From contig NZ_CP080507.1 in NCBI RefSeq assembly GCF_019464535.1, forward strand, positions 3,660,001 through 3,692,000: DNA of 32,000 nt. Direction: 5' to 3'. The notes below the pieces were generated by a model, which saw nothing but the letters and a program-made list of their open reading frames with translations, did no database searches and was not told the DNA's origin. The position numbers were made by a program, and so were the translations under genes. This DNA is from Horticoccus luteus (GTDB taxonomy: Bacteria; Verrucomicrobiota; Verrucomicrobiia; Opitutales; Opitutaceae). Below, piece by piece: positions 1-19,692 of this stretch (position 1 is the first letter of the stretch; each line of letters starts with the position of its first letter).

Positions 1-3000
1 GCCGAATACACCGCCAACATCGTCACCGCGCCGACGACCGGCGCGGACGTGCGCACCCTTCAAGGCAGCACCGGGTTGATCACGCTCAAGGGCACGTTGA
101 CGCTCAATGGCACGACGAATTTCTTCCTTCCGAGCAAGGTGAGCGACATGCGCTTCAACATCGAAGCCGCGCTGTCCGGGTCCGGCGATATCGTGATCAA
201 CGGCGGATCGGCGGGTGGCACCACCACCAACGGATTCGTGACCTGGGCGTTTGGCGACATGTCCCAGTGGCATGGCACCGCGATCACCGTGGCCAACAAG
301 CACACCATCGCCTTCACCCAGAACACCGACTTTTACACCACCAACCCCACGCTCCAGTTGGATTTCTCCAACACCTCCGCAGGCTTTATCAACCTTTCGG
401 CCAACGTTTCCGTCGGCAGCGGCAAGGTCAAGATCGCCACCGGCACCTCCAAGAATCCCGCGACGTTCACGCTGCTCGACGGCATTTATACGGTTTACGA
501 TCTCAATGCCCTCGCGATCGCCCAATCGGCGAGCGGAGCGCCTTACTCCGCCCAGACTTGGGCCAGCGAAGGCGCCGGCTACGACGCCGCCGGCACCACC
601 TACAAACTCTACGTCGGCCAGGCTCTCCCCGCGACTGCACCGACCATCTCCACCCAGCCCGCCAGCAAGGCCGTTTTCGCCGGCAGCTCCGTCACCTTCT
701 CCGTCGTCGCCACCGGCACCCCTGCGCCAACGTATCAATGGCAGAAGGACGGCTCGCCCTTGGCCGGTAAAACCGACGCCAGTCTCTCGCTGACCAACGT
801 TTCTTCCGCCGAGGCCGGCGACTACGCCGTCGTCGTCACCAATGTCGGCGGCACCGTCACCAGCAATGTCGCCACGCTGACCGTGCAAACTGTCGCGGTT
901 GCCCCGAGTTTCACCGCCCAGCCGCAAAGCAAAACCAGCTACGCAGGCACGACCGTCACGTTCACCGCCACCGCGACCGGCACCCCCGCGCCGACTTACA
1001 CGTGGCAGCTCAACGGCACCGCCATCGCCGGCGCGACCACCGCGACTCTCACGCGCTCCAGCATTTCCGACGCCTCCGCGGGCACCTACACCTGCGTTGC
1101 GACCAATAGCGCCGGCTTCGCCACCAGCACGGGGGCCGTCCTCACCGTGACGCCCCTGCCGACCGGCGTGCAGGCTTACGCCAATGCCAACGCCACCGGT
1201 TCGAGCGACAACTGGAATGCCGCCAAGGACGCCGTGCAATGGACCTTTGATGCCGGCACCACCTACCTCGCTGCTTCCACCGGCAACACCTACCACACCA
1301 ACGGCTACACGATCCGCGCTGGTCACGCCGCCACGGTGGCGCCCCTCGCTCCGGGCGTCTCCACCTTCAACGGCGCCACGCTCGTCGTTGACGCTTTCAG
1401 CTCCGCTTCGCAGTTGACCGACAATTCTGCGGCTGGCGGCGGCACCTTGAATTTCGAGCCCGCCTCCACCGGCGCCGGCCCGCGCCTCTCGCCCACGTCG
1501 ACCACGCGCGCGGCCTTTACGGCGAACATCGTCACCACCGCCACCCCTCTCGTCGATCAACCGCGCAACATTCGCACCAACACCGGTTCCGCCACGCTCG
1601 ACGGCACCTTGGTGCTCAATGGCAAGACCGTCTTCAGCATCCCCGGCAGCGTGACCGACGTCTTGTTCGATATTAATTCGCCTGTCACCGGCGCCGGCAG
1701 CATCGAGCTCAGCGGCGGCTCGTCTGGCGCCGGCACCGCCAACGGCTTCGTCACCTGGGCTTTTCACAACTTGAATGGTTGGACGGGCGCGAGCCTCGCC
1801 GTGATGCACCATCACACCGTCAGCTTCGCCGGCCCGACCGATCTTTACCGCACCAACCCGGCCGGTGCGGTTGTCTTGGGCTCCACGAGCTCCCCTTCCT
1901 CCGGCTATCTGAACATCCAGGCAGATGTCTCGTTCGGCAGCGGTAAGCTTTCGATTATCACCGGCAGCGCGACCACGCCCGTGACCACCGTCATTCCCGA
2001 CAACACCTACACCGTCGCGAGCCTCAACGCCTACGTCGCCAACGTCGTCGCCGGCACCTCCGGCGGTTATGTCGACCTGCCGCTCGCCAGCGAAGGCCCG
2101 ACCAACACCACGACGCCGAACTACAGCGGCACCACCTACCGCATCTACGTCGGCAGCGGCCTGCCGAATCAGGCGCCCACGATTTCGACGCAGCCGCAGG
2201 GTGCGACCGTCCTCCTCGGCGAAACCGTCACGCTCACCGTCGCGGCCGACGGCAGTCCGGCCCCCACGTTCCAATGGCAGAAAGACAACGTCGCGATCGC
2301 CGGCGCCACCGCCGCCACCCTCACGATCGCCTCCGCCCAAGTGACCGATAGTGGCACCTACACGGTCGTGGCGACCAACGCGGTTTCCAGCGTCACCAGC
2401 AGCGGCGCGCTCGTCACCGTCAACCTGCCGCCGGCGCCGCCATTCACCGCGCAACCCGCCTCGCTCACGCAAAACGCCGGCACCACCGCCACGTTTACCG
2501 CCGCCGTCGCCCCCAGCGCGTTCGCGCCGACCTATCAGTGGCAGAAAGATGGCAGCGATGTGGCCGGAGCCACCTCCGCCACGTTGACGATTGCCAACAT
2601 CCAAGCCGCGCACGCCGGCAGCTACACCGTGATCGCGACCAACGCCGGCGGCTCCACCACCAGCACGGCTGCGACTCTCGTCGTGACTCCCGCCGCCCCG
2701 ACCGTCGAACCCGCCGCCCCGCTCACCGTCGGCGCGGGCAGCCCGATCACGCTCACCGCCGTCGCACATGGCACGGAACCGTTCACCTACACGTGGGCCA
2801 AGGATGGCGTCATCATCGCGGGTGCGACCGACGCGACCTACACGATCGCCAACGCCCAGGCGTCTGACTCCGGCATCTACACCTACACGGCGACCAACTC
2901 CGTCGGCACCGCCATGAGCGCGGACGCCCAAGTCGTCGTCAACGCCGTCTCCTCGACCTATCTCTCCAACGTCTCCGTGCGCGTCACCACCACGCCGACG

Positions 3001-3741
3001 CAGACGCTGATCATGGGCTTCGTCGTGGCCAACGGTTCTAAACCGATCCTCGTGCGCGCCGCCGGCCCGATGCTCAACACCTTCGGCCTCACCGGCGCTC
3101 CCAATCCTTCGGTTACGCTGTTTGATTCTTCGACGAACCCCGCCACCAGCGTAGCCGTCAACGACGACTGGTCGCTCTCGTTGAAAAATAAAATCGCCGA
3201 GCTCGGTGCGTATCCCTTCGCGGATGGCAGCAAAGACGCTGCACTGTTGCAGACCATCACCGGACCCCACACGGCGAACGCCATGGGCGGCGGCAGCGGC
3301 GCCCTCCTCGCCGAGGCCTACGACGCCGGCACCAACAACGGCCCGAAACTCGTCAATGTCTCCGCCCGCTTCAACGCCGGCACGGGCAACGACGTTCTCA
3401 TCGCCGGGCTGGTCATCGCCGGCACCGGCCAGCAATGGGTGCTGATCCGCGCCATCGGCCCGACCCTCGCAGACTTCGGTGTCCCCGGCACCCTCGTCGA
3501 CCCGAAGGTCGAGGTTCACCACACCGTGAATCAGGCCGACGTCATCGTCGCCTCCAACGACAACTGGGACGCCGCGCTCGCGACGGAGTTCTCCCGCCTC
3601 GGCGCCTTCCCGCTGACCGCAAACAGCAAAGACGCCGCCCTCCTCGTGCTGCTCGATGCTGGCGCCTACACCGTCCAAGTCTCCGGCGTGAACGGCGGCA
3701 CCGGTGAAGCGTTGGTCGAAGTTTACGACGCGACTCCCTGA
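1..3741 (+). CDS. Very large secreted/surface protein, 5'-partial. Architecture: [~330-aa module + 2 Ig-like domains] + [~330-aa module + 3 Ig-like domains] + 2 C-terminal ~130-aa domains of unassigned family
   Basis: The frame is open from nt 1 (AEYTANIVTAPTTGAD...). That stretch aligns with the internal AAFTANIVTTATPLVD of the second module. The GTG at 49 in the ORF track is therefore not the real start, and the gene continues upstream of the window. Five domains carry an Ig (I-set-like) signature: P.(Y/F).WQKDG ... D.G.Y.V.A.N ... L.V. Stop is TGA 3739-3741. Composition is Thr/Ala/Ser/Gly-rich with no enzymatic motif seen. Confidence 0.85.
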   Translation, partial: AEYTANIVTAPTTGADVRTLQGSTGLITLKGTLTLNGTTNFFLPSKVSDMRFNIEAALSGSGDIVINGGSAGGTTTNGFVTWAFGDMSQWHGTAITVANKHTIAFTQNTDFYTTNPTLQLDFSNTSAGFINLSANVSVGSGKVKIATGTSKNPATFTLLDGIYTVYDLNALAIAQSASGAPYSAQTWASEGAGYDAAGTTYKLYVGQALPATAPTISTQPASKAVFAGSSVTFSVVATGTPAPTYQWQKDGSPLAGKTDASLSLTNVSSAEAGDYAVVVTNVGGTVTSNVATLTVQTVAVAPSFTAQPQSKTSYAGTTVTFTATATGTPAPTYTWQLNGTAIAGATTATLTRSSISDASAGTYTCVATNSAGFATSTGAVLTVTPLPTGVQAYANANATGSSDNWNAAKDAVQWTFDAGTTYLAASTGNTYHTNGYTIRAGHAATVAPLAPGVSTFNGATLVVDAFSSASQLTDNSAAGGGTLNFEPASTGAGPRLSPTSTTRAAFTANIVTTATPLVDQPRNIRTNTGSATLDGTLVLNGKTVFSIPGSVTDVLFDINSPVTGAGSIELSGGSSGAGTANGFVTWAFHNLNGWTGASLAVMHHHTVSFAGPTDLYRTNPAGAVVLGSTSSPSSGYLNIQADVSFGSGKLSIITGSATTPVTTVIPDNTYTVASLNAYVANVVAGTSGGYVDLPLASEGPTNTTTPNYSGTTYRIYVGSGLPNQAPTISTQPQGATVLLGETVTLTVAADGSPAPTFQWQKDNVAIAGATAATLTIASAQVTDSGTYTVVATNAVSSVTSSGALVTVNLPPAPPFTAQPASLTQNAGTTATFTAAVAPSAFAPTYQWQKDGSDVAGATSATLTIANIQAAHAGSYTVIATNAGGSTTSTAATLVVTPAAPTVEPAAPLTVGAGSPITLTAVAHGTEPFTYTWAKDGVIIAGATDATYTIANAQASDSGIYTYTATNSVGTAMSADAQVVVNAVSSTYLSNVSVRVTTTPTQTLIMGFVVANGSKPILVRAAGPMLNTFGLTGAPNPSVTLFDSSTNPATSVAVNDDWSLSLKNKIAELGAYPFADGSKDAALLQTITGPHTANAMGGGSGALLAEAYDAGTNNGPKLVNVSARFNAGTGNDVLIAGLVIAGTGQQWVLIRAIGPTLADFGVPGTLVDPKVEVHHTVNQADVIVASNDNWDAALATEFSRLGAFPLTANSKDAALLVLLDAGAYTVQVSGVNGGTGEALVEVYDATP
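640..1152 (+). repeat. Two tandem Ig-like domains (640-888, 901-1152)
   Basis: PTISTQP...PTYQWQKDG...AGDYAVVVTN...ATLTV and APSFTAQP...PTYTWQLNG...AGTYTCVATN...AVLTV. The nucleotide sequences are diverged, so this is an old duplication. Confidence 0.8.
1174..2154 (+). repeat. Second copy of a ~330-aa N-terminal-type module (protein-level paralog of 1-618 and of 9318-10289)
   Basis: Shared blocks: NTYHTNGYT(I/L)RAG; AGPRLSPT; T(L/I)(D/N)G(T/S)L.LNG.T.F; (I/V)(E/V)(L/I/M).GGS.G; NGF(V/D)TWA; W(T/H)G; H(H/K)HT(V/I)(S/A)F; (F/Y).TNP; G(Y/F)(L/I)N(I/L).A(D/N)VS(F/V)GSGK; TTY(R/K)(I/L)YVG. Confidence 0.8.
2173..2943 (+). repeat. Three tandem Ig-like domains (2173-2424, 2437-2691, 2692-2943)
   Basis: PTFQWQKDN...SGTYTVVATN...LVTV; PTYQWQKDG...AGSYTVIATN...LVVT; FTYTWAKDG...SGIYTYTATN...QVVV. 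Confidence 0.8.
2959..3738 (+). repeat. Tandem pair of an unassigned ~125-130-aa C-terminal domain (A copy 2959-~3330, B copy 3349-3738)
   Basis: Both copies follow this pattern: L.N(V/L)S.R ... L(I/V).G(F/L)V(V/I).G ... (I/L)(L/I)(V/I)RA.GP.L..FG..G ... P ... NDDW/NDNW ... LGA(Y/F)P....SKDAALL ... G.(H/Y)T ... G(E/A)(A/L)L.E.YD. The same pair ends the protein encoded at 4890-6644. Confidence 0.75.
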
Positions 3742-3770
3742 TCGCCGGCCACACTCGCCCTCGCCTGACC

Positions 3771-3810
3771 GAAGCGGCAATCGCGCTCCCGCGCATTGCC
3801 GCTTCGCTTT
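3771..3810 (+). terminator. Hairpin downstream of the giant gene, a possible weak intrinsic terminator
   Basis: The 11-bp arms gaagcggcaat (3771-3781) and attgccgcttc (3795-3805) are perfectly complementary. An inner gcgc/gcgc pairing lies at 3783-3786/3791-3794. Only gcttt follows, so the U-tract is poor. Confidence 0.4.
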
Positions 3811-3842
3811 AGGCGCGACGCCCGCTCCGCCTTATTTTCCCC

Positions 3843-4871
3843 ATGAACTTTCGGACCGGCTTGTGCGTTCTCGCCTGCCTGCTCGCTCCCGCCCTCCGCG
3901 CCCAGATCGCCGCCGGCTCGGACCCCGTTGGCATCCTGTCGTATGACGTTCCCCTCGGACTCTCCGGCCTCAGCCTTCCGCTGATTCCACAGGAAATCAT
4001 CGCCGCACCCGTCGTCGCCAACGCTGGCTCCGTCCTCACCTTGGCGGCCGCGGCCGGCAATGTCGGCGCGCAGTTGCAGAGCGGCGCCGCCTACTACGTT
4101 GAAATCCTCAGCGGCCCCTCCGCCGGTGAACGCTTCGAGGTCGACACCGCGGCGACGATCACAACCGCTAACGCCACCGTCGTCCTCGTCCTCGGCGGCG
4201 CCTCGCACAGCACCGCGCAGCCGGTCGACCACGCGCTCGTGGGCGCCCGCGCCGCCGTGCGCGCCGGCGTCACCCTCGAAACACTCGCCGCCCAATTTTC
4301 TCCCGCCCTCACAGGCTCCGATGATCCCGCCCTCGCCGACGGGGTGCGCCTCTACGGCGCCGAAGGTTTCACGAGTTACTACCTGCGCGCCGATGGTGCG
4401 AGCTGGGCCACGCTCAACAATCCCGCCGACCAGCGCACCCTCGTCCTTCCGCCCGATGTCAGTCTCGTGCTCGACCTCAAATCGGCGCCCCGCCAGCTCG
4501 TGCAGTTGGGCGGCGTCCGCACCAACGTTTTTCGCGTGAACTTGCGCGCGGGTTACCAGGCGTTCGCCACCGGATTTCCGGTCGACCTGACGCCCGCGCA
4601 AGTTGCCGCCGTCGTCGATATCAACCAACCCGCGTCCGCACGCTGGACCGCTGCGAACGACGCAGCCGCCGCCGACAACCTCGAGATTCTCGATCTCCCC
4701 GCCCGCAGTTTCCTGCGTTATTATTTGCGCGCCGATGGCCGCAGCTGGCGGCGGCTCGGGCAGACGACCGACTTCGCCGACCTCCCACTTCTTCGCACCG
4801 ACAGCATCATCATCGTGCGCCGCACTCTCGCCGATGCGACTTATCGCATCGCGCCGCCTTTCTCTCTGTAA
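3843..4871 (+). CDS. Secreted hypothetical protein (342 aa) with repeated YY(V/L) ... G..(F/W) modules
   Basis: ATG 3843, TAA 4869-4871. N-terminal signal peptide MNFRTGLCVLACLLAPALRAQ. Three related segments: AYYVEILSGPSAGERFEV, SYYLRADGASWATLNNPADQRTLVLPPDVSLVL and RYYLRADGRSWRRLGQTTDFADLPLLRTDSIIIV. The opposite-strand ORF 3723-4628 has shadow-ORF composition. Confidence 0.75.
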   Translation: MNFRTGLCVLACLLAPALRAQIAAGSDPVGILSYDVPLGLSGLSLPLIPQEIIAAPVVANAGSVLTLAAAAGNVGAQLQSGAAYYVEILSGPSAGERFEVDTAATITTANATVVLVLGGASHSTAQPVDHALVGARAAVRAGVTLETLAAQFSPALTGSDDPALADGVRLYGAEGFTSYYLRADGASWATLNNPADQRTLVLPPDVSLVLDLKSAPRQLVQLGGVRTNVFRVNLRAGYQAFATGFPVDLTPAQVAAVVDINQPASARWTAANDAAAADNLEILDLPARSFLRYYLRADGRSWRRLGQTTDFADLPLLRTDSIIIVRRTLADATYRIAPPFSL

Positions 4872-4889
4872 CGCGCGCTCCGTGCTCTC

Positions 4890-6644
4890 ATGAACAAATT
4901 TCTGCGCGTTGCGTCCTTTTGGTTCGGCAGCGTTTTAACCACCTTCGCCACCTCCGTCGGTCTTTCCGACACCGCGACCCTCGTGCAGGGCCGGAGCGGC
5001 ACGACGTGGGACGATGCCACCGTCGCCCTCGGCACCTTCGACGATGGGTTCGTGCCGACCGCGCAAAACCGCGCACAATGGGCCAGTCATTGGTTCACCA
5101 CGTCGACCGGCTACTACGCCTCCGCCGGTGGCGCCTCTGAAGTGAGCGCCGAACTTGTTCTGGCCGACAACGTCGCAATCCCCGCCGGCCAGCTCCTCTA
5201 CGTCTGGATCACCCACGGGTCCGAAGCAGGTTTATACAGCGACGCCGCCTGGACAGCGCCCGTCGCCTCCACGCTCGGCCTCAGCCACACCTTGCACTTC
5301 AGCGCGCAAACGGTGGCGATCTTCGGCGCGTTCGACGGCGCTCACCTCGTGGCGGCCACCGCCTCCACGGATCTGTCGATCGTCACGCAGCCCGCGACTC
5401 AATCCGTCACCGCAGGTGACTCGGTGACGTTCACCGTCGTCGCCGGTGGCACCGCGCCCTTCGCGTATCAATGGCACAAAGATGGCGTCGATCTCGCTGG
5501 TGCGACCAACGCCACCCTCCTCCTCGCCAGTGTTACCAACGCGGATGCCGGCGAATATCAAGTGAGCGTGGCGAACGCCGCCGCTGCCATCACCAGCGAC
5601 GCCGCCACGCTCACGGTCGCCACGGCGCCCCTCATCGTCGACGATCCGCAATCGCAGACCGTGCCGCCGGGAGGCAGCCTCACGCTCACCGCCCATGCCG
5701 AGGGCGTCGCGCCCTTCACCTACCAATGGTTCAAAAACGGCGTGCCGATCCCCGGCGCGACCGACGCCACCTTCGCCATCCCTGCCGTGAGCTCGGGCGA
5801 TGCGGGCAGCTATATTGTTCGGATCACCAATTCGCTCGGCACCGCGTATAGCGCCGCCGCGCTCGTGGCGGTAAACTACGGCCCTGCGCTCTCCAACCTT
5901 TCCGTGCGCGGCGGCATGACCGCCGGTCAAACGCTCATCACCGGCTTTGTGGTCTCGGGTGGCACGAAGCCCGTCCTCGTGCGCGCCGCGGGACCCGCCC
6001 TCAATGCGTTCGGCCTCGTCGGTGTCGCGGATCCACGGCTCGTTTTATATGATGGCGACACCGTCGTCGTCACCAACGACGATTGGCCGGCGTCGCTCGC
6101 TCCGACCTTCGCTTCACTCGGCGCCTTTCCCTTCGACCCCGACAGCAAGGACGCCGCCCTCATGGAATCGATCAGTGGCCCGCACACCGCGCACACCAGC
6201 AGCACCGGCGACGGCACCGTGCTGGTCGAAGCCTACGACGCCGGCTCGAGCAATGGCGTCGCGTTGAGCAACCTCTCCGCGCGCTATCATGTCGGCACCG
6301 GCAACGATATCCTCATCGCCGGCTTCGTGCTGAGCGGCAGCGGACCACAACGGATCTTGATCCGCGCCGTCGGCCCGACACTCGGCTCCTTTGGCGTCAC
6401 TGGCGTGCTGGAGAATCCGCAATTCAGCGTGTTTCTCGACGGTCAGTTGGTCGCATCCAACGACGATTGGTCCGCCGCGCTCACGTCCGTTTTTCAATCG
6501 GTCGGCGCCTTCAATTTCCTCGCTGACAGCAAAGACGCCGCGCTGCTTGTCACACTCGAGGCGGGCCACGGCTACACCGTGCAAGTGTCGGGTGTCGGCG
6601 GCGCCACCGGCGAAGCACTCGTGGAAATCTACACGGTGCCGTGA
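4890..6644 (+). CDS. Secreted Ig-like-repeat protein (584 aa): unique N-terminal region + 2 Ig-like domains + the same tandem C-terminal domain pair
   Basis: ATG 4890 lies 18 nt after the previous stop. TGA 6642-6644. Hydrophobic N-terminus FLRVASFWFGSVLTTFATSVG. Ig-like domains show FAYQWHKDG...AGEYQVSVAN...LTV and FTYQWFKNG...AGSYIVRITN...LVAV. The C-terminal 250 aa are collinear with the end of the 1-3741 protein. Confidence 0.85.
   Translation: MNKFLRVASFWFGSVLTTFATSVGLSDTATLVQGRSGTTWDDATVALGTFDDGFVPTAQNRAQWASHWFTTSTGYYASAGGASEVSAELVLADNVAIPAGQLLYVWITHGSEAGLYSDAAWTAPVASTLGLSHTLHFSAQTVAIFGAFDGAHLVAATASTDLSIVTQPATQSVTAGDSVTFTVVAGGTAPFAYQWHKDGVDLAGATNATLLLASVTNADAGEYQVSVANAAAAITSDAATLTVATAPLIVDDPQSQTVPPGGSLTLTAHAEGVAPFTYQWFKNGVPIPGATDATFAIPAVSSGDAGSYIVRITNSLGTAYSAAALVAVNYGPALSNLSVRGGMTAGQTLITGFVVSGGTKPVLVRAAGPALNAFGLVGVADPRLVLYDGDTVVVTNDDWPASLAPTFASLGAFPFDPDSKDAALMESISGPHTAHTSSTGDGTVLVEAYDAGSSNGVALSNLSARYHVGTGNDILIAGFVLSGSGPQRILIRAVGPTLGSFGVTGVLENPQFSVFLDGQLVASNDDWSAALTSVFQSVGAFNFLADSKDAALLVTLEAGHGYTVQVSGVGGATGEALVEIYTVP
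5370..5876 (+). repeat. Two tandem Ig-like domains (5370-5618, 5625-5876)
   Basis: Same signature as the Ig-like domains of the first gene. Confidence 0.8.
5886..6641 (+). repeat. Tandem pair of the unassigned C-terminal domain (A copy 5886-~6250, B copy 6264-6641)
   Basis: ALSNLSVRGG...LITGFVVSGGTKPVLVRAAGPALNAFG...TNDDW...LGAFPFDPDSKDAALM...VLVEAYDAG, then LSNLSARYH...LIAGFVLSG...ILIRAVGPTLGSFG...SNDDW...VGAFNFLADSKDAALLV...GEALVEIY. The A copy resembles the A copy of gene 1, and the B copy resembles its B copy. Confidence 0.75.
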
Positions 6645-6770
6645 TTATTTCGGCGCCCGACCGGCGCGGGAATGGAAGTCGGCACAATGCATCGCCGTGC
6701 AACCGACCCAATCGCTTCTCGCGCTCTTTCTCCGGGAGCGAGTGACTACGCGGGCACAATTTCGCACCGC

Positions 6771-8810
6771 ATGCCTGCACGAACCCTTCACCGCCTTCCG
6801 TTGATCGCCGCCCTCGCGGTGATCGTGTTGGCCGGCCTCGTGGCCTATCGTGGCAGCTTCGCGGCGCCCTTCGTCTTCGACGATCTCTCGGCCGTGCGCG
6901 ACAATCGCTCGATTCGGCAGCTCTGGCCACTAAGCGAACCACTCGCCCTCGCTCCGCGCACCGGCGGCTCGGGCGCTGACGGACGGCCGCTCGTCAACCT
7001 CTCCCTCGCGCTTAACTATGCGTGGAGTGGTCTCGATGTCCGCGGCTATCGCGTCACCAACCTCATCGCCCACATCCTGGCGGCTCTCGCCCTCTTCGCG
7101 CTCGTGCGGCGCACACTCACGCTGCCGAAAGTCGGCCTTCCTCCAGCCGACGTCACACTCGCCGCCGCCGCCTCGGCCTTGCTGTGGGTTGTTCATCCGC
7201 TGCAATCAGAGAGCGTCCTCATCGTCCAAAACCGCAGCGAAATCCTCACCGCACTCTGCTATTTTTTAACGCTGCTATTCGTCGCCCGCGCCGCCCTCGC
7301 GCCCCGCGGCACGCGATGGTCAACCCTCGCGATCGTCACGTGTCTCGCCGGGATGGCCTGCAAAGAAACCATGGTTTCCGCGCCCCTCGCCGCGCTGCTC
7401 TACGATCGCACGTTTCTCGCCGGTTCGTTCCGCGCCGCGTGGCGTCAACGCGGGCGGCTGTATCTTGCCCTCGCCGCCACGTGGGGACTTCTCGCCGTCC
7501 TGGTGTTGCAGCAGGACGGCCGTTCCGGCACCGCCGGATTTGGACTCGGCGTCACCGCTTGGAATTACCTGTGCACCCAGTGCGCGGCGATCGTCATCTA
7601 TCTCAAGCTCGTCGTCTGGCCTTCGCCCTTGGTCTTGGATTACGGCCTTCCCATTGTTCGCGATTGGACCGCCGTCTGGCCGCAGGCGGCGTTGCTGGTC
7701 CTCCTCGGCGCGGCCGCCATCTGGGCGTTGCGGCGCTGTCCGCGCGCCGGCTTTCTCGGCTTCGTCTTCTTCGCCACCCTCGCGCCCAGCTCGAGCGTCA
7801 TCCCCATCGTCACCCAAACGATGGCCGAACACCGGATGTATCTGCCGCTCGCGCCGCTGCTCGTGCTGCTCGTTCTCGGTCTGCGCCGGTTGTCTCGGTT
7901 TTGGTGGGCGCCCGTAGCCGCCGCCGTCCTCGGACTGACTGTGCTCACGGCGCAACGCATCCCTGCTTACCGCTCCGAACTCGCCCTCTGGACCGACACC
8001 GTGGCCCACGCGCCGGAAAACGCCCGCGCTCACAACAATCTGGGCAACATGCTGGCCGCCTCGCCTGCGGACTTGCCTGCAGCGATCGCGGAATTTCGCC
8101 GCGCGCTGCAGTTGCAACCCGACCACCTCGAAGCCCTCAACAATCTGGGCAACGCCTTGGTTCTCTCCGGCCCGGCCGGCGTCCCCGAAGCCATCGCCTG
8201 CTACGAACACGCCCTGCGGCTCGACCCCAACTACGCCTCCGCCCACAGCAACCTTGGCGAGGCGCTCGCCAAAGTCCCCGGGCGTCTCGACGAAGCCATC
8301 GCGCACCTCGAGCGCGCCGTCGCGCTGAAGCCGCAATTCCCCGAAGCGCAGTTCAACCTCGCGCTCGCTCTCGCGCAACGCCCGGGTTCCGCCCTCGCCG
8401 CAATCGCCCAATTCGATCTCGCGATCATCCAACAGCCCGAGCTCGCGGAGGCGCACTATTACCGCGCCAACCTGTTGCTCGCCCAACCGGGCCGCGTCAC
8501 CGACGCCATCGCCGGCTATGAAGCGGCGCTGCGGCTAAACCCCCGCTACCCTGAGGCGCATCACAACCTCGGCACCGCGCTGGCCCGCACGCCCGGCCGG
8601 CTCGACGATGCCATCGCTCACCTCCGCACCGCGATCGAACTGAAGCCAGATTACTTCAGCGCCTTCCTTAACCTCGGCTTGATCTATGCCGAGCTCCCCG
8701 GCCACGAAACGCTAGCACGCACTCACCTCGAACGCGCCCTCGCTCTTCGCCCCGACTCCACCCGCACCCGCGCGGCGCTCGGTCGCCTGAATGCGCACCG
8801 CCGCCCCTGA
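6771..8810 (+). CDS. TMTC-like GT-C family membrane glycosyltransferase (PMT_2/DUF1736-like multi-pass N-terminal half) fused to about 7 C-terminal TPR units
   Basis: The N-terminal half has about 9-11 hydrophobic spans. It carries the loop-1 acidic motif FVFDDLSAVRDN after TM1, then RPLVNLSLALNY, GYRVTNLIAHIL, HPLQSESV, CKETM, LVLDYG and AEHRMYLPL. This order matches what I remember for TMTC/DUF1736 proteins. The C-terminal half is a TPR array. TGA 8808-8810. The start is ambiguous: the ORF opens at ATG 6672, but ATG 6771 (MPARTLHRLPLIAALAVIVLAG) sits directly before TM1. Confidence 0.8.
   Translation: MPARTLHRLPLIAALAVIVLAGLVAYRGSFAAPFVFDDLSAVRDNRSIRQLWPLSEPLALAPRTGGSGADGRPLVNLSLALNYAWSGLDVRGYRVTNLIAHILAALALFALVRRTLTLPKVGLPPADVTLAAAASALLWVVHPLQSESVLIVQNRSEILTALCYFLTLLFVARAALAPRGTRWSTLAIVTCLAGMACKETMVSAPLAALLYDRTFLAGSFRAAWRQRGRLYLALAATWGLLAVLVLQQDGRSGTAGFGLGVTAWNYLCTQCAAIVIYLKLVVWPSPLVLDYGLPIVRDWTAVWPQAALLVLLGAAAIWALRRCPRAGFLGFVFFATLAPSSSVIPIVTQTMAEHRMYLPLAPLLVLLVLGLRRLSRFWWAPVAAAVLGLTVLTAQRIPAYRSELALWTDTVAHAPENARAHNNLGNMLAASPADLPAAIAEFRRALQLQPDHLEALNNLGNALVLSGPAGVPEAIACYEHALRLDPNYASAHSNLGEALAKVPGRLDEAIAHLERAVALKPQFPEAQFNLALALAQRPGSALAAIAQFDLAIIQQPELAEAHYYRANLLLAQPGRVTDAIAGYEAALRLNPRYPEAHHNLGTALARTPGRLDDAIAHLRTAIELKPDYFSAFLNLGLIYAELPGHETLARTHLERALALRPDSTRTRAALGRLNAHRRP
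8022..8790 (+). repeat. TPR array, about 7 units of about 38 aa
   Basis: Recurrent unit: (A/E)(H/Q).NLG.AL...PGRL(D/T)(E/D)AI..(L/Y)(E/R).A(L/V).L.P.... Confidence 0.8.
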
Positions 8811-8844
8811 ACGCTCATGCCTTCCCGGCTTCTGCCCCGCAATT

Positions 8845-9156
8845 ATGGAGTGGCGGTGGGGGGCCGGCCTGACCGAGGCAATCGAGCAGCAGAAAATCGC
8901 CGCGCGATTGCGCCCCGACTCTCTCCCTGACCACTACAATCTGGCCCTCGCACTTCTTCAGTCACCCGGCCGCGAACGCGAGGCCGAACGGGAATTGCAG
9001 GAAACAGTGCGACTCGCTCCGAATTTCGTCTCCGCCCGCGAAAACTCGCCGAATTGCAGGCACCGCCCGATCGACCAAAGGCGCCCGGTTTCATCTCCTC
9101 GGCACTGTCGGCCCTCCATCGACGAGCCGCCAAGCACCTTCGCTCACGTCCTCTAA
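8845..9156 (+). pseudogene. Decayed TPR-gene fragment (about 1.5 TPR units) in a different frame from the upstream gene
   Basis: LTEAIEQQKIAARLRPDSLPDHYNLALALLQSPGREREAERELQETVRLAPNFVSARE matches the unit of the upstream TPR array. After ...SARE the frame reads as non-protein-like sequence (NSPNCRHRPIDQRR). An adjacent frame reads KLAELQAPPDR across the run gaaaac (about 9040-9050), which suggests an indel. Confidence 0.3.
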
Positions 9157-9248
9157 GATGCGTGGTCATTACGCTTGGCCGCGCTAGACCGCGACTTTCT
9201 CATGTCATGCACTACCAATAAAATTTTGCGCGCTCCAACATTTACCCC

Positions 9249-10394
9249 ATGAAAATCAATCGTCTCACCCTCCTATCCGGACTAACCGCCTGCCTCGCTT
9301 CGCTAGCCAACGCTCAAACCGATTATTACGCTAACGGCGCTGCCGGCACGAGCGACAACCTAAATAGTTCCCAAAACAACAAGTGGACGCTGGGCGGCAC
9401 GCCCGCATACGTCGCAGCCAACACAACCCCCGGCAACGTCTATCACACCAACGGCTGGACGCTGCGCGCCGGCCGCATTGGCACAACAGTTGATCCCCAA
9501 GGCTCCTTTACTTTTAACGGCTCGTCGCTGGTCATTGATGACTACGCTGCAGGCTCTAGCCTGAACAGCAACACGACCCACGGTGCGGTCATTTTCGAAC
9601 TGGCCTCGGTGCTCGCCGGACCGCGCCTCAGCCCCGCCACCTACACGCGTGGCAGCTACACCGTCAATCTCACCACCGCGCCGCTGTCCGCCACGATGAC
9701 TGCCGGCGCTGCCTCGGCGGCTAATTCTCTGCGCATCATTCAGGCCAGTAACGGTGTCACGACAATCAACGGCTCTCTCACCCTAAACGGCGACACTCAG
9801 TTCAAAATCGGAAGTAGCATCACGGACATGTTAGTGAAAATCGACGCGCCCATCACAGGTTCCGGGCGCATTGAAATGAGCGGTGGCTCGGCAGGTGGCC
9901 AGATGGAAAATGGTTTCGACACGTGGGCAGTAAGCGACATGAGCGGGTGGACAGGTGGGCTGATCAACGTCGTCAACAAGCACACGATCTCGTTCACGAA
10001 CGACACGGATTTCTTCACGACTAACCCGAACGCGGTGATCAATTTCGGCACCACTTCTAGCGGTTTTCTCAATCTCCAAGCCGACGTTTCCTTTGGAAGC
10101 GGCAAGGTTTTCATCAATGGCACCTCTTTAGCCGACGGTTCCTACACTGTCGACATGCTAAACACCCCTTTCACAAGCGGAGTAAATGGGCTTTACGGCC
10201 AGACATTAACGAACGGCCACATTTCGCTTTTCGCCAGTGAAGGCGCGAACTTCGGGACGGTGGGCACAACCTACAAACTCTACGTGGGCTCGTCGATCGC
10301 CTCCGCGATTCCCGAGCCTTCCACCTACGCGGCGGTTGTCGGTCTCTTCGTCCTCGCCGGCGCGGCCTATCGCCGTCGCCAACGTCAACGCTGA
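9249..10394 (+). CDS. PEP-CTERM-anchored secreted protein (381 aa), a single-module paralog of the N-terminal modules of the giant protein
   Basis: ATG 9249, TGA 10392-10394. Signal peptide MKINRLTLLSGLTACLASLANAQ. The body (9318-10289) is collinear with modules 1-618 and 1174-2154. The C-terminus IPEPSTYAAVVGLFVLAGAAYRRRQRQR (10311-10391) is a canonical PEP motif, followed by a TM helix and an Arg cluster. Confidence 0.9.
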   Translation: MKINRLTLLSGLTACLASLANAQTDYYANGAAGTSDNLNSSQNNKWTLGGTPAYVAANTTPGNVYHTNGWTLRAGRIGTTVDPQGSFTFNGSSLVIDDYAAGSSLNSNTTHGAVIFELASVLAGPRLSPATYTRGSYTVNLTTAPLSATMTAGAASAANSLRIIQASNGVTTINGSLTLNGDTQFKIGSSITDMLVKIDAPITGSGRIEMSGGSAGGQMENGFDTWAVSDMSGWTGGLINVVNKHTISFTNDTDFFTTNPNAVINFGTTSSGFLNLQADVSFGSGKVFINGTSLADGSYTVDMLNTPFTSGVNGLYGQTLTNGHISLFASEGANFGTVGTTYKLYVGSSIASAIPEPSTYAAVVGLFVLAGAAYRRRQRQR

Positions 10395-10420
10395 CACTCG
10401 GCGCCATCTTCGCTTCATCG

Positions 10421-10453
10421 GCCCAAACCTTCATTGGTTTGGGCTTTTTTTTT
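10421..10453 (+). terminator. Rho-independent terminator of the PEP-CTERM gene
   Basis: gcccaaacc (10421-10429), loop ttcatt, ggtttgggc (10436-10444), then T9 (10445-10453). It lies 27 nt after the stop codon. Confidence 0.85.
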
Positions 10454-10634
10454 CGCCGGTGTTTTTCATCCGACCGCAGTCTTCAGGACACCTCCTCCGC
10501 CACTGAATCAGTTCCCCGCAGCACCGCCGCCCCAACGCCTCGTTGCATCTCCCTGCGCCTCTCCTAACCTGCCCACTCGCTCGCCCTGCCACGGCCTTTG
10601 GCCCTCGCGCCAACTTTGTTCACCTCGCCCCGCT

Positions 10635-12746
10635 ATGTTCTCCGCGTCTCCTCCCCTCTGCTTCCTCCTCGGCTTCGCCTTGACGCTCACTTCCGCCGCG
10701 TCCGCGCAACTCCCCACGTCAGCCCCCATGCGTCCCTTGGTCGATCTCCACACCGGCTATTTTCCGTTTCACGCGGAGAACACCACGTCACCCGCCGCTT
10801 GGTCCGCCCGCCGCGCCGCGATTCGCGAACGCGTGCTCCTCGCCGCGGGGCTTTTCCCGCTCCCTACCAAAACGCCCCTCCACGCCGTCGTGCATGGCCG
10901 CATCGAACGCGACGACTACACCATCGATCGCGTCTTCTTTGAGTCGTTTCCCGGCCATTACGTCACGGGCAACCTGTATCTTCCCAAGTCTCTCCCCGCC
11001 GGCGCGACGATGCCCGGCATCCTCAGCCCGCATGGCCATTGGCCCGACGGCCGCTTCATGGATTTCGGCGCCAATTCCTCCGCCGTCAAAGAGCAACTCG
11101 CCACCGGCGCGGAGCGTTTCGAGAGCGGCGCGCGAGCCTTCCTCCAGGCCCGCTGCGTGCAACTCGCGCGCATGGGCTGCGCCGTGTTCATCTACGACAT
11201 GCTCGGCTACGCCGACAGCCTCCAGGTCGCCGCGCATCGCGACCACCGCCGCGACGAGTTGTGCGGCGACGAACCCGGCACCTTCGGCCTGCTCAGTCCG
11301 ATGGCGGACCTGCGTCTCGAATCCAACTTCGGCTGGCAAACGTGGAACAGCATTCGCGCGCTCGACTTCCTCCTCACCGTGCCGGGCGTCGATCCCTCCC
11401 GCCTCTCCTGCACCGGCGAGAGCGGTGGTGGCACGCAAACCCTCATGCTCGCCGCCATCGACGACCGCCTCGCCACCGCGTTTCCCGCCGTCATGGTGAG
11501 CACGGCCATGCAGGGCGGCTGCCTCTGTGAAAACGCCGCCTATCTCCGCCTTGACCAAGGCAACGTCGATCTCGCCGCTGCCTTCGCGCCCAAGCCGATG
11601 GGCCTCACCGCCGCCAACGACTGGACGAAGGAACTCGCGACCAAAGGCTTTCCCGATCTGCAGCGCCTCTGGACGCAGCTCGGCCATCCCGAAAATCTCA
11701 CGGCCACTTTCAACACGCACTGGCCGCACAACTACAACCAGGTTTCCCGCGCCACGATGTATGGATTCATGAGCGAGCATTTCCACCTCGGCTATTCGCT
11801 CCCGGTCCTCGAACGCGACTTCGTCGTCAGCTCGCCCGCCGAACTCACCGTCTGGAACGCCGACCACCCAAAACCCTCCGGCCAACACGTCGGCGGCGCG
11901 CACGAGGAAGCCGTGTTGAAATACTGGAGCGAAGACGCCGATCGCCAGCTCGCCGGCCGCGACGACCTCGTGCGCCGCGCGTGGGAAATCATGATCGATA
12001 ATCCCGCGCCCGACGCCACCGACGCGCGTTTCCTCTCCCTCTCGTCTCCGCAACCTGTTGCCGCCGGCGAGACCCGTGGCGAAATCAAGTCCGCCCAAAC
12101 CGGCGCCACCATCCCGTGCGCGATCTTTGCGCCCACCAACGCCACGCCCAACGGCACCATCGTCCTCTGGCTCACCGACACCAATCCTGCCGCCGACGCC
12201 GCCAGCGCCACATCCGCGATCGCCCAACTTCGCGCTGCCGGCAGCGTCGTCGTGCAACCCACGCTCTATCTGCAAGGCGCCGCGCACCAACCGCTCCTCC
12301 CGCCGGCAGACGGCGATCCCGAGCGCCGCGGCTGGGAGTCGGCCGCCTGCTACACATTCGGCTACAATCCCACTCTGCTCGCCCAGCGGGTGCACGACGT
12401 CGCCACGGTCGTCGCCTGGCTCAAGGCAGAACCCAAATTTTCCGCCGCCCAACTTATCGTCGTCGGCTCCTCCGGCGCGGGTCCGACCGCCGCCACCGCC
12501 GTGGCGCTTCTCCCCGACCAAATCGCTCGTGCCGTGTTCGCGCTCGAGGGCTTCCGCTTCGCCCACGTGCGCGACATGGTTGACCCGATGTTCGTCCCCG
12601 GTGCCGTCAAATACGGCGACGTGCCCGCGCTCCTCCGCTTGGGCGCCGCCGCCCGGCCGATCGTTTTTGACGACGCCGCACACCCGACCGATGACGCCAC
12701 TCTCGCCCGCGCCGTCCTCACCGCCATCGCGGCTCCTCGCCACTGA
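10635..12746 (+). CDS. Secreted alpha/beta hydrolase (acetyl-xylan-esterase / dienelactone-hydrolase-like), with a possible second degenerate hydrolase-like C-terminal half
   Basis: ATG 10635 gives the signal peptide MFSASPPLCFLLGFALTLTSAASAQ. A nucleophile elbow CTGESGGGTQTLMLAA is present, along with HGHWPDGRF and the typical YTIDRVFFESFPGHYVTGNLYLP esterase N-terminal region. The ORF-track start at 10434 would span the terminator at 10421-10453, so I rejected it. TGA 12744-12746. Confidence 0.8.
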   Translation: MFSASPPLCFLLGFALTLTSAASAQLPTSAPMRPLVDLHTGYFPFHAENTTSPAAWSARRAAIRERVLLAAGLFPLPTKTPLHAVVHGRIERDDYTIDRVFFESFPGHYVTGNLYLPKSLPAGATMPGILSPHGHWPDGRFMDFGANSSAVKEQLATGAERFESGARAFLQARCVQLARMGCAVFIYDMLGYADSLQVAAHRDHRRDELCGDEPGTFGLLSPMADLRLESNFGWQTWNSIRALDFLLTVPGVDPSRLSCTGESGGGTQTLMLAAIDDRLATAFPAVMVSTAMQGGCLCENAAYLRLDQGNVDLAAAFAPKPMGLTAANDWTKELATKGFPDLQRLWTQLGHPENLTATFNTHWPHNYNQVSRATMYGFMSEHFHLGYSLPVLERDFVVSSPAELTVWNADHPKPSGQHVGGAHEEAVLKYWSEDADRQLAGRDDLVRRAWEIMIDNPAPDATDARFLSLSSPQPVAAGETRGEIKSAQTGATIPCAIFAPTNATPNGTIVLWLTDTNPAADAASATSAIAQLRAAGSVVVQPTLYLQGAAHQPLLPPADGDPERRGWESAACYTFGYNPTLLAQRVHDVATVVAWLKAEPKFSAAQLIVVGSSGAGPTAATAVALLPDQIARAVFALEGFRFAHVRDMVDPMFVPGAVKYGDVPALLRLGAAARPIVFDDAAHPTDDATLARAVLTAIAAPRH

Positions 12747-12877
12747 CGAGCACCCGCCCGGTGGGCCGTGCGTTCCGCCGCGCGGCAGCTTTGCCCCTCC
12801 ACTCGCGCGGCCCACGCCCAGCTCCGCGCGCGGCTGATTCTCCGTCCGATCGAGCCTCGCGCTGAAGCGCGCACGCG

Positions 12878-13080
12878 TGGTGGGCGCCCGACGTGCTTCT
12901 GGTCGAGGCGGCTGAAGTCGTGCGGATGGCGGTAGCCGAACGGGTAGGCCACTCCTGGCATTCTCCCCATGCGAGATATCGTCGTGGGTTGACATGGCCT
13001 GCTGGCGCCCGCTGGTGCGCGCGGTCCGTGGGCGGAAGAATCCACTTGCGGGAATAGATGCGTGGCACGGGTTGATTCAC
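12878..13080 (-). pseudogene. Internal-deletion remnant of an AraC-family regulator, paralogous to the gene at 23361-24281
   Basis: In minus-strand frame A (13050-12961), RKWILPPTDRAHQRAPAGHVNPRRYLAWGE aligns with RKLTLPPRDRAHWHAPAAHPGPLLYLAWGQ of the intact paralog. In frame B (12958-12878), PGVAYPFGYRHPHDFSRLDQKHVGRPP aligns with its extreme C-terminus VAFRLGYSHPHDFSRAYQKQTGRPP. The two pieces are out of frame and abut at about 12953-12965. Roughly 200 or more codons, including the first HTH, are therefore missing. Confidence 0.7.
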
Positions 13081-13298
13081 TCGCGAAAACCCGGTTCAGC
13101 ACTGAAAGTGTGGCCCAACGGAGCGCTGATAATCCATCGATGGCCGCAATAGTTTGGTCTCAGGGCGCAGCAAAATGCGTCAGGGACGTGAATCCGCTGC
13201 TCGTTGGCGATTGAGATGGCGCGGAGTGGGGCTGATTTTTCGAGCGTGGCCAAAGGAGTATCGAGGCCGGCCGCGTTGTTCCCCTCGCCATCGATAAT

Positions 13299-15722: not shown

Positions 15723-15723
15723 C

Positions 15724-17364
15724 ATGCCATGGCCCCTCTTTGTTCTGGGCGCGGCGCTGGCCGTCGCCCATCCGACCACCGCAGCGGAGCCGAGCGCGGA
15801 GTGCCGCAACGGCGAGTTTCAGTTCAGCGCCACGTTCAGCAACCGCGGTGTGGACGGCCACCCGGCCCACCCCGTCACGGCTTACCTGTGGATTCCGCCG
15901 GACTGCGGCAAGGTGCGCGGGCTCATTCTCACGCAGCAGAATGTCGGCGAGCAGACCTTCACCGAGCATCCGGCGATCCGCGAGGCGTGCGCCCGCAACG
16001 GACTGGCGATCCTTTGGTGCTGCCCGGCCATCGACATCCGTTTTGAAAAGGACCGGAAGGCAGCCGTGCAGGTGCTTGAGGACGGGCTGCGCCAGCTAGC
16101 GGAGGTTTCCGGCTACTCTGAGATCGGCTCGGCACCGTGGATCACCTTCGGGCATTCCACGACGGCGACGTTTGCGCGCACGCTCGCCGAGGCGCGGCTT
16201 GATCGCACGCTCGCGATCATCTCGGCCAAAGGTGGCATCATGCTGCCGGTGGTGGGCTCGGTGCCGGGCGTTTACTCCGGCGGGCATTTTCCCGAGTGGC
16301 GGCAGACCTCGGCTGACTGGACCAAGCAGGGTCGTTCACTGCCGGCGCTGGAACGGATTCGCGATGGATTGAAGGCCCGCTGGCGCCCCGTTTCATATGT
16401 CGAGGAGTTTGGCGGCGGGCACTTCGACTACACGGATCGCTACCTCGAGTTTCTCGCGCTCTATATCGACAAGGTGATGCGCTATCGGCTGAACGCCGAC
16501 GGCTCGATTCGCGCGATCCGGCCGGACGAGGGTTTCGTGGTCGACATGCGGCCGCCACTGCCAACGGCTCCGCTGCGGATTCTGCCGCTGAAGGAGGCGA
16601 CGGGTGATCAGCGCTCGGCGCCGTGGTTTTTCGACCGCGAACTGGCGGAGGCGGCGGTGGCGCTGATGGATGACGGCCATTGGGAGCGGAAGAACCAGAT
16701 CGTGGCCTTCGCCAAGGCGGACGGCACACCGGCGGAGTTTTCCAAGTCGGGCATTGCCGACCCGGTGCCGTGCGAAATCGCCACGGACGGGGTCACGGTC
16801 ACCCACCTCGAAACGACGTTTCTTGATGAGTTGCCGGGAAACTTTGCGCAGGCGGGCATGAAACTGACGCACGCGGCCACCGGCCCGCGCACGATCGAGC
16901 GCATTTCCGGCGTGTTCGTCGCCGATGGCGGCAAATACCGCATCGAACTGAACCGCGGCTATCCCGCCATCCCGAACTTCATCGCAGTGCGCCATGCGGG
17001 CGATGCCACGCACCGGCCAACGGTCCAGCCAGCGCGGTTTGTGCCTCCGGTGTTCACGGGCCGGGCTCAGAAAATCACCTTTGGCAGGATTGGCGACCAG
17101 ACGGCGGGCGTCGCGCGGGTCGCACTGCATGCCGAGTCCGACGCCGGGCTGAAGGTGCGGTTTTTTGTGCGCAGCGGTCCGGCCAAGATGGTGGGCGACG
17201 AGCTGGTTTTCCTGCCGGTGCCTCCGCGCACCCGCTGGCCGGTGAAGATAACGGTTGTCGCCTGGCAGCTGGGCCGGGGCGGTGCAAATCCCGTGGCTGC
17301 GGCGGAGATGGCGGAACAGACGTTTTGGCTGAAGGCGCGTTTGGGCGCGAAGGCGCAGCCATGA
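15724..17364 (+). CDS. Secreted hypothetical protein (546 aa), possibly alpha/beta-hydrolase-like at its N-terminus
   Basis: ATG 15724 lies 1 nt after the upstream TAA, so the two genes are translationally coupled. Signal peptide MPWPLFVLGAALAVAHPTTAAEP. WITFGHSTTATFA is a weak nucleophile-elbow-like motif (GHSTT, not a strict G-x-S-x-G). TGA 17362-17364. Confidence 0.7.
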   Translation: MPWPLFVLGAALAVAHPTTAAEPSAECRNGEFQFSATFSNRGVDGHPAHPVTAYLWIPPDCGKVRGLILTQQNVGEQTFTEHPAIREACARNGLAILWCCPAIDIRFEKDRKAAVQVLEDGLRQLAEVSGYSEIGSAPWITFGHSTTATFARTLAEARLDRTLAIISAKGGIMLPVVGSVPGVYSGGHFPEWRQTSADWTKQGRSLPALERIRDGLKARWRPVSYVEEFGGGHFDYTDRYLEFLALYIDKVMRYRLNADGSIRAIRPDEGFVVDMRPPLPTAPLRILPLKEATGDQRSAPWFFDRELAEAAVALMDDGHWERKNQIVAFAKADGTPAEFSKSGIADPVPCEIATDGVTVTHLETTFLDELPGNFAQAGMKLTHAATGPRTIERISGVFVADGGKYRIELNRGYPAIPNFIAVRHAGDATHRPTVQPARFVPPVFTGRAQKITFGRIGDQTAGVARVALHAESDAGLKVRFFVRSGPAKMVGDELVFLPVPPRTRWPVKITVVAWQLGRGGANPVAAAEMAEQTFWLKARLGAKAQP

Positions 17365-17397
17365 GTGGTCCGCGCGGGTGGATTTCCCGGCACTTTT

Positions 17398-17563
17398 AGG
17401 GAGCTCCTATTTTCTCTCCCGCCCGTAGGGCCGTCGCTGGTCGGTGCGTCATCCGAACCACCTCCTGCGGAGGCCAGGCACAGCCACAAGGGCCGGCCCT
17501 ATGCAGACTTCGAGTTCCTGTACGTGCCTTTTACGCATAGCCATGAGAAAATAGGAGTCCCCT
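17398..17563. repeat. 166-bp element bounded by 19-bp imperfect inverted repeats, in a convergent intergenic spacer
   Basis: The left arm agggagctcctattttctc (17398-17416) and right arm gagaaaataggagtcccct (17545-17563) are complementary at 17 of 19 positions, with 13 contiguous (ctcctattttctc / gagaaaataggag). Inner complementary pairs: 17426-17432 with 17495-17501 (tagggcc/ggcccta), and 17461-17465 with 17469-17473 (cctcc/ggagg). Confidence 0.6.
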
Positions 17564-17706
17564 TTATTCGCGCAGGCCGGAGGGCCGCGCGCTCCCCCGC
17601 GCGGCTGTGTCGCCTCTCCAGCCGATCAAGCCGCGCGCGGCGCGCACGGCCCACCTTGCCCTCTTTCGCGCCCCGCGCAGACCCAGACCTCACCCGCAAA
17701 CGTCGT

Positions 17707-19626: not shown

Positions 19627-19631
19627 AGGGC

Positions 19632-19659
19632 TTGGCGAATAAGACGAATTGGCGAATAA
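19632..19659 (-). promoter_or_regulatory. Two copies of an 11-nt direct repeat immediately upstream of the symporter start codon
   Basis: ttggcgaataa occurs at 19632-19642 and 19649-19659 (TTATTCGCCAA on the coding strand), a 17-nt period. The proximal copy ends 5 nt from the ATG. Confidence 0.25.
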
Positions 19660-19692
19660 AACCCGTGGTATGCGACGCAGGGCCGATGGCGC

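Follow-up and report, generated by a model that had tools for sequence, protein, structure and literature searches.

A predicted TMTC-like glycosyltransferase with a tetratricopeptide repeat array, encoded beside Ig-repeat surface proteins in Horticoccus luteus

We analysed a 32,000-nucleotide stretch of the genome of Horticoccus luteus (Opitutaceae; contig NZ_CP080507.1, positions 3,660,001 to 3,692,000; referred to here as the window), at the start of which four closely spaced open reading frames (ORF1 to ORF4) lie on the + strand. ORF1 (1-3741), whose 5' end lies beyond the window edge, encodes a large secreted or surface protein. ORF2 (3843-4871) encodes a protein of 342 amino acids with a signal-peptide-like N-terminus and no Pfam or NCBIfam match, and ORF3 (4890-6644) a secreted immunoglobulin-like (Ig) repeat protein of 584 amino acids, as mapped by Pfam and blastp. 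ORF4 (6771-8810), the main subject of this analysis, encodes a multi-pass membrane protein of 679 amino acids with about seven tetratricopeptide repeats (TPRs); its start is that used by NCBI (P0001), and an upstream ATG at 6672 is possible, which would give 712 amino acids. An earlier annotation made from the letters of the DNA (the sequence-only reading) had described four co-directional, closely spaced genes here, and these are present, with intergenic distances of 101, 18 and 126 bp. In a scan for terminator-like sites between ORF1 and ORF4, none stood out. ORF4 is 100% identical to an NCBI entry for H. luteus named 'tetratricopeptide repeat protein', and JGI names several of its relatives 'protein O-mannosyl-transferase'.

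The N-terminal half of ORF4 (amino acids 1-415; 6771-8015) is a TMTC-like domain of the glycosyltransferase C (GT-C) type, as indicated by hhalign, hmmsearch, blastp, Foldseek and residues invariant in the family. As a reference we used the aligned N-domains of TMTC1-4 (six TMTCs) from the supplement of Eisenhaber et al. 2021 (PMC7801869). Comparison of the ORF4 N-domain family with these six proteins by hhalign gave a probability of 99.86% (E 5.2e-31, 372 columns), and the alignment ran end to end, with query positions 18-403 on template positions 6-429. An hmmsearch with the family profile matched human TMTC4 at E 1e-27 and the six TMTCs at 1e-27 to 3e-19, and gave no match to ArnT. Identity between the ORF4 family and the TMTCs was 25-33% by blastp. 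The Pfam family PMT_2 (PF13231) matched 18 of 47 relatives of ORF4 at E<=0.01, the best at 1.2e-8.

Structure prediction with AlphaFold2 (AF2) gave a full-length model with a predicted local distance difference test score (pLDDT) of 90.3. Because a Foldseek search with this model was swamped by TPR proteins, which were its only matches, we modelled the N-domain (residues 1-425) separately (pLDDT 79.6; predicted TM-score, pTM, 0.86). The top 15 PDB matches of this domain were all GT-C or GT-C-like proteins (AglB, STT3, PglB, ArnT, EmbA/B/C and PIGU), with the best TM-score for ArnT (5f15; TMq 0.49), and Pmt4 followed at ranks 17-18 as a weak fold match (E 0.38). Pfam matched no MIR domain in ORF4 and the AF2 model is all-helical; with no MIR domain, ORF4 is therefore excluded from GT39.

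We then placed the seven TMTC ligand-site motifs (M1-M7) listed in Table 4 of PMC7801869 on ORF4, and assessed conservation in family alignments of 47 sequences and of 20 sequences (A2). M1 is fully matched by FVFDD (amino acids 34-38, 6870-6884, + strand as for all ORF4 motifs), in which the DD pair is D37-D38. M2 is matched in part, by GRPLVNLSLALNY (6981-7019); this block reads G-R72-P73-LVNLSLALNY, so that only R72-P73 and the following helix are retained and the 'SHKSY' part is absent. The block HPLQSE (amino acids 142-147, 7194-7211), which lies outside M1-M7, fully matches the HPxHTE block of TMTCs. M3 (RxD/E) is fully matched by RSE, with R155 and E157 (7233-7241), both invariant or >=90% conserved in the family; TMTC3 likewise carries E at this position (PMC7801869). 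M4 (KE(T/Q)) is fully matched by KETMVS (7362-7379), with KET at amino acids 198-200, and M5 (DW) is represented with an aromatic substitution by DYG (7638-7646), with DY at amino acids 290-291. Of M6 (PxxP) a single proline, P339, is found, and EHRMYLP (amino acids 353-359, 7827-7847) resembles M7 (ERxxY), with E353 and Y357 aligned at the same spacing.

Thirteen of these residues, namely F36, D37, D38, H142, P143, K198, E199, D290, E353, H354, R355, M356 and Y357, are invariant in the 47 sequences. F34, E147 and Y291 are >=90% conserved in the 47 and invariant in A2, while V35, T200 and P359 fall below that level in the larger alignment. The blocks FVFDD, HP..SE, KET, DY and EHRMYLP that the sequence-only reading had picked out thus all lie where it placed them in ORF4, and by their alignment they are TMTC active-site motifs.

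Several results weigh against this assignment. Pfam found no match to the N-terminal half of ORF4 itself even at E<=10, PMT_2 included. DUF1736 (PF08409), which was expected as part of a TMTC-like architecture, was undetected by Pfam in ORF4 and absent among the 25 of 55 families listed for the 47 relatives, and hhalign placed the 'DNPA' stretch of the TMTC DUF1736 segment, which lies in the TM7-TM8 loop, on unrelated residues of the ORF4 family. The family profile matched no solved GT-C among PDB sequences, its sole matches there being TPR designs that align to the final 30 positions of the profile, and the Foldseek scores of the top 15 structures were modest (E 2.6e-3 to 0.13, TMq 0.33-0.49). 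In the M7-like block the arginine, R355, stands one position further on, at +2 instead of +1. In the literature on the bacterial TMTC-like family, we found no biochemical or functional study and no activity or substrate. The profile check proposed by the sequence-only reading thus fails at first sight, as ORF4 matches neither PMT_2 nor DUF1736, but the more sensitive comparisons with TMTCs succeed. Taken together, there is good support for regarding ORF4 as a true bacterial relative of the TMTC O-mannosyltransferases of animals.

The C-terminal half of ORF4 (amino acids 416-679, 8016-8810) is a TPR array (Pfam TPR_11 E 2.7e-51), which also matches the TPRs of OGT and SPY. Beyond residue 401 the AF2 model has 16 helices in a pattern that recurs about every 35 residues, and therefore about seven TPR units and a capping helix; the helix count bears out the seven units proposed earlier. 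The loops rich in lysine and arginine (218-227, 321-327 and 371-380) were taken as cytoplasmic, and the helix at 263-282 aligns with the membrane-parallel JM3 helix of TMTCs, for which the topology model has 11 transmembrane (TM) helices (PMC7801869). From the distribution of these basic residues and the JM3 alignment we infer that ORF4 would fit the 11-TM model and that its TPR array would be periplasmic.

ORF4 belongs to a very large family. A threshold of E<=1e-3 gives 89,511 cluster representatives, of which 14,647 remain at E<=1e-30, and relatives of ORF4 number at least 4,878; Horticoccus has a further paralogue, P0096. Of 84 loci, 24 contain tandem copies, and arrays reach five TMTC-like genes, as at 4202-13266 of locus L016. 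A protein of 1270 amino acids (P0138) is matched over two stretches and might have arisen when two tandem copies fused. Another TMTC-like tandem pair, at 1385-7817 of L092, comes after two small PEP-CTERM proteins and before a chondroitinase-B-like protein; it was considered as an orthologue of the window pair and rejected, as the TPR halves are only 26-36% identical. Between paralogues in pairs, the N-domains are about 47-60% identical versus about 27-46% for the TPR halves, a pattern that fits conserved chemistry combined with diversifying acceptor recognition.

The window itself carries signs of turnover in this family. Downstream of ORF4, at 8869-9066 (+ strand), lies a remnant of about 65 codons, corresponding to the end of a C-terminal TPR region, which blastx aligned at 61% identity to residues 618-676 of P0003, the 683-amino-acid downstream copy of the tandem pair in locus L001. 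By this alignment the remnant is the leftover of a second GT-C/TPR gene in tandem, now deleted. Compared with the tandem pairs of L001 and L004, ORF4 has an N-domain nearer to the downstream copy (59-68% identity versus 52-60% for the upstream copy), whereas its TPR half is nearer to the upstream copy (57% versus 46% for the downstream copy). ORF4 therefore looks chimeric, a likely product of such turnover.

We next considered the secreted proteins encoded around ORF4. The Ig-like repeats proposed earlier for ORF1 and ORF3 are confirmed by Pfam Ig_3, with five stretches in ORF1 (E 2.6e-65) and two in ORF3 (E 8.6e-22). The description of ORF1 as giant is overstated; it is large, and the part missing at the window edge is about 140 amino acids, judged from its 1385-amino-acid orthologue in locus L004. 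Mapping by blastp resolved ORF1 (all + strand) into a partial first N-module resembling ORF5 (4-627), an Ig pair (640-891 and 904-1140), a second N-module (1177-2163), an Ig triplet (2176-2436, 2440-2700 and 2704-2955) and two copies of a C-terminal domain that we call Cdom (2965-3342 and 3349-3732); the repeats were also aligned (A3). ORF3 (+ strand) consists of an N-domain (4950-5369, blastp), two Ig repeats (5370-5627 and 5628-5891) and two Cdoms (5892-6263 and 6264-6641, blastp). Cdom spans about 125 amino acids, is paired in both proteins and has no Pfam or NCBIfam model. It occurs in at least 1,718 protein clusters, all named 'hypothetical protein', and usually follows Ig domains, in some cases RCC1 or RGL11_C domains.

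ORF5 (9249-10394, + strand) encodes a PEP-CTERM protein of 381 amino acids, identified by Pfam and NCBIfam and by domain mapping. Its N-module (amino acids 23-350) is found twice within ORF1 at 43-48% identity, and ORF1 is therefore made of two ORF5-like units together with Ig and Cdom domains. ORF5 follows ORF4 after 438 bp and is flanked by a promoter-like site (9197-9224) and a strong terminator-like hairpin (10420-10445), and is probably a separate transcription unit. ORF3 and ORF5, like ORF2, have signal-peptide-like N-termini. Serine and threonine make up 19-24% of ORF1, ORF3 and ORF5 (24% in ORF1 and 23% in ORF5) and 12.9% of ORF2. When the seven Ig repeats of ORF1 and ORF3 were aligned, a Thr in the presumed B strand and a Ser in the presumed G strand were invariant. 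We rejected this pattern as evidence for a substrate, since such residues are generic in Ig-like strands; it is compatible with Ig domains being modified. The ORF2 family is very small, with 17 homologous clusters among 5.8 billion proteins, and its members are in every case flanked on one or both sides by genes for very large surface proteins, whose domain make-up varies, which suggests an accessory role of ORF2 for such proteins.

Conservation of the gene neighbourhood was examined in 78 genome loci containing family members at 46-57% identity, within 10 kb. Neither ORF2 nor Cdom was found in any of these loci (0/78), and an Ig domain of any kind was found in two (2/78). The recurrent neighbours, whose identities were read from cluster-representative sequences without a family search, were a TonB-type receptor, ribonucleotide reductase alpha and beta, hemolysin III, cardiolipin synthase and an extracytoplasmic function (ECF) sigma factor. 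A PEP-CTERM protein lay in 4 of the 78 loci, immediately adjacent in three, and this adjacency was dropped as a family trend because it was too weak.

Linkage of ORF2 with the enzyme was seen, despite rearrangement, in only three close lineages: the window, loci L001-3 with L090, and loci L004/L005. In L004/L005 the order is an Ig protein of 1385 amino acids, a protein of 341, an Ig protein of 589 and two enzymes, the enzyme N-domain being 59% identical to that of ORF4. In L001-3 and L090 a protein of 343 amino acids is followed by two enzymes (N-domain 68-70% identical to that of ORF4), a PATR protein, an ORF5-like and an ORF6-like protein; in L001 and L090 no ORF3 gene lies between ORF2 and the enzyme pair. 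Conversely, L085 carries an Ig+Cdom protein of 1240 amino acids, an ORF2-like protein and an ORF3-like protein of 591 amino acids, with no TMTC-like enzyme within 10 kb. Other ORF2 homologues lie beside RGI_lyase/Big_13/PATR giants (L086), beside a protein of 2724 amino acids (L089), or near only a 26%-identical TPR protein that is divergently transcribed (L088). Orthologues of ORF3 come after ORF2 homologues in L004, L005, L085 and L089. In the two Ig+Cdom neighbourhoods that were sampled, no TMTC-like enzyme was found. In one of these two, L094, a 625-amino-acid GT-C with PMT_2 only lies directly upstream of, and co-directional with, another Ig+Cdom protein, of 1204 amino acids (14608-20439, - strand); this enzyme was rejected as a member of the TMTC-like family, being of an unrelated one, and the case is an anecdote. 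The association of enzyme and Ig proteins that the sequence-only reading expected to be conserved thus does not extend beyond close lineages, and paralogues of the enzyme sit beside unrelated genes. ORF1, ORF2 and ORF3 form a surface-protein cassette that is separable from the enzyme. As the link is found only in close relatives, the Ig proteins are therefore candidate substrates and nothing more.

These results lead us to propose, with a probability of about 0.6, that ORF4 acts in the inner membrane as a TMTC-type GT-C glycosyltransferase (CAZy GT105-like) and modifies exported proteins. We infer its donor, the protein nature of its acceptor, its topology and the role of its TPRs as follows. 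By analogy with TMTC, ArnT and PMT, the GT-C domain would face the periplasm and span the membrane with about 11 TM helices. D37 and D38, in the first periplasmic loop, would form the catalytic or acceptor-binding pair, and K198/E199, D290 and E353/R355/Y357 may hold the metal ion and the phosphate of the polyprenyl-phosphate sugar, as proposed for TMTCs (PMC7801869). The donor sugar might, again by analogy, be mannose or at least a hexose, and because ORF4 is bacterial the carrier is expected to be of the undecaprenyl rather than the dolichyl type. The sugar would be transferred in the periplasm to Ser or Thr of exported proteins, which the superhelix of seven TPRs would dock or select. ORF4 is one paralogue in a very large, tandemly amplifying family, in which the diverging TPR halves are consistent with different acceptor specificities, and the Horticoccus clade would be where the ORF1-ORF3 cassette became linked to a tandem enzyme pair. 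As candidate acceptors, ORF1, ORF3 and ORF5 are reasonable choices.

A more specific proposal, and the one made by the sequence-only reading, is that ORF1-ORF4 form a dedicated module in which the enzyme O-glycosylates the Ig-fold domains of ORF1 and ORF3 and its TPRs recognise the beta-sandwich. The genes are co-directional and separated by short gaps with no terminator-like site standing out, L004/L005 keep the same order, and the link between ORF2 and the enzyme survives rearrangement in L001-3 and L090. The Ig proteins are rich in Ser and Thr, and the presumed strands that carry their invariant Thr and Ser are those on which TMTCs mannosylate extracellular cadherin (EC) domains (PMC10214176). 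Moreover, TMTC and TMEM260, both characterised families that combine GT-C and TPRs, target beta-sandwich domains (PMC10214176), and the unrelated PMT_2 GT-C of L094 adds an anecdote of similar kind. However, the linkage is phylogenetically shallow, covering three lineages with enzymes 57-70% identical, and both partners occur apart: the trio in L085 has no such enzyme, further ORF2 homologues flank non-Ig giants with the enzyme absent, and ORF3 is missing between ORF2 and the enzymes in L001 and L090. Ig+Cdom proteins form at least 1,718 clusters, and the two of their neighbourhoods that were sampled lack this enzyme; of the 78 other family loci none has ORF2 or Cdom and two have an Ig domain; and conserved Thr and Ser in beta strands are a general feature of Ig-like domains. 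The neighbourhood test goes in part against a module, and we regard a dedicated module as unlikely. That the tandem pair of the Horticoccus clade is a periplasmic system devoted to O-glycosylating the Ig-like (and Cdom) beta-sandwich domains of the surface proteins next to it seems to us quite unlikely.

The acceptor of ORF4 could instead be a non-protein one, such as lipid A or the core of lipopolysaccharide (LPS), an exopolysaccharide or another envelope glycan, as for ArnT and Emb/Aft, with the TPRs serving as a scaffold for envelope machinery. ArnT gives the best TM-score and EmbA/B/C match as well; most family members adjoin housekeeping or envelope genes, such as those for the TonB-type receptor and cardiolipin synthase; and an exopolysaccharide export locus lies about 17 kb downstream of ORF4. 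By sequence, though, the family resembles TMTC (E 1e-27) much more than ArnT (no match), and it retains the TMTC motifs. TPRs bind proteins, the two characterised families with GT-C and TPRs are both protein O-mannosyltransferases (PMC10214176), and the faster divergence of the TPRs among paralogues suits many protein clients better than one glycan. Because of this specific affinity to TMTC and the diverging TPRs, a non-protein acceptor is less likely than a protein one, and we consider it improbable. Finally, ORF2 is the sole gene adjacent to or near the enzymes in all three linked lineages and lies immediately upstream of the pair in L001-3 and L090, but its homologues at 44-50% identity occur without the enzyme, its Ser and Thr content is low and no Pfam or NCBIfam match hints at its fold or function, so that ORF2 as the functional partner of the enzyme (adaptor or acceptor), with the Ig proteins as mere cargo of its cassette, is very improbable.

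Elsewhere in the window, the export locus is of the XrtA/PEP-CTERM type and occupies 25723-30029 on the - strand. It comprises genes for a chain-length/kinase-like protein with Wzz, GNVR and AAA_31 domains (25723-27924), an EpsE-like export protein (27936-28571) and a BBP2_2 beta-barrel porin (28632-30029). Three ORFs, at 15724-17364 (+), 19693-21012 (-) and 20976-23027 (-), encode proteins of 546, 439 and 683 amino acids with no significant Pfam or NCBIfam match, and the latter two share an overlap of 37 nt.

On present evidence the locus gives a well-annotated view of a family that is known but uncharacterised. Bacterial TMTC-like GT-C/TPR proteins are extremely common, as the 14,647 representatives indicate, and this locus provides concrete candidate acceptors in ORF1, ORF3 and ORF5. 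If the link between enzyme and Ig proteins were true, TPR-guided GT-C enzymes would have O-glycosylated folded beta-sandwich domains before animals arose. The system would then correspond, in bacteria, to the O-mannosylation specific to cadherin EC and IPT domains in animals, and might be its evolutionary precursor; the family, with its tens of thousands of bacterial enzymes, would gain a first substrate.

Among known systems, ORF4 is most like the metazoan TMTC1-4 (GT105), O-mannosyltransferases of the endoplasmic reticulum (ER) that act on the EC domains of cadherins and protocadherins and share its layout of about 11 TM helices in a GT-C domain followed by C-terminal TPRs. The DD of M1, RxD/E of M3, KE(T/Q) of M4, D-aromatic of M5 and HPxxTE align with ORF4, as do RP-L-x-x-L-x-x-x-L-N-Y of M2 and the E and Y of M7. 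Unlike these enzymes, ORF4 is bacterial, with a predicted undecaprenyl-type rather than dolichyl carrier; it lacks 'SHKSY' of M2 and 'DNPA' of the DUF1736 loop, has one M6 proline, reads EHRMY in place of ERxxY, is only 25-33% identical, and belongs to a massively multi-copy, tandem family. Full-length prokaryotic TMTC homologues, with a GT-C sugar transferase followed by TPRs, have already been noted as widespread and uncharacterised, an example being AMJ42_05695 of a deltaproteobacterium (Eisenhaber et al. 2021, PMC7801869). ORF4 is of this kind, and its locus adds the context of Ig+Cdom proteins, the ORF2 cassette and a PEP-CTERM protein.

ArnT, which PMC7801869 gives as the nearest homologue of TMTCs with a solved structure, and the PMT_2 enzymes have the GT-C fold in common with ORF4, and PMT_2 is matched by some relatives (18/47). 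ORF4 itself has no PMT_2 match, however, its family profile misses ArnT, and ArnT has 13 TM helices, a non-TPR periplasmic domain and lipid A as its acceptor. TMEM260 (GT117) and PMT/POMT (GT39) are likewise GT-C protein O-mannosyltransferases. In TMEM260 the lumenal domain is TPR-like, and the targets of the enzyme are Ig-like IPT domains (PMC10214176), whereas PMT/POMT differ from ORF4, which has no MIR domain and only a weak fold match to Pmt4. The kind of enzyme encoded by ORF4 is thus already known, and the idea of its substrates, drawn from its neighbours, is a testable lead of low to moderate strength.

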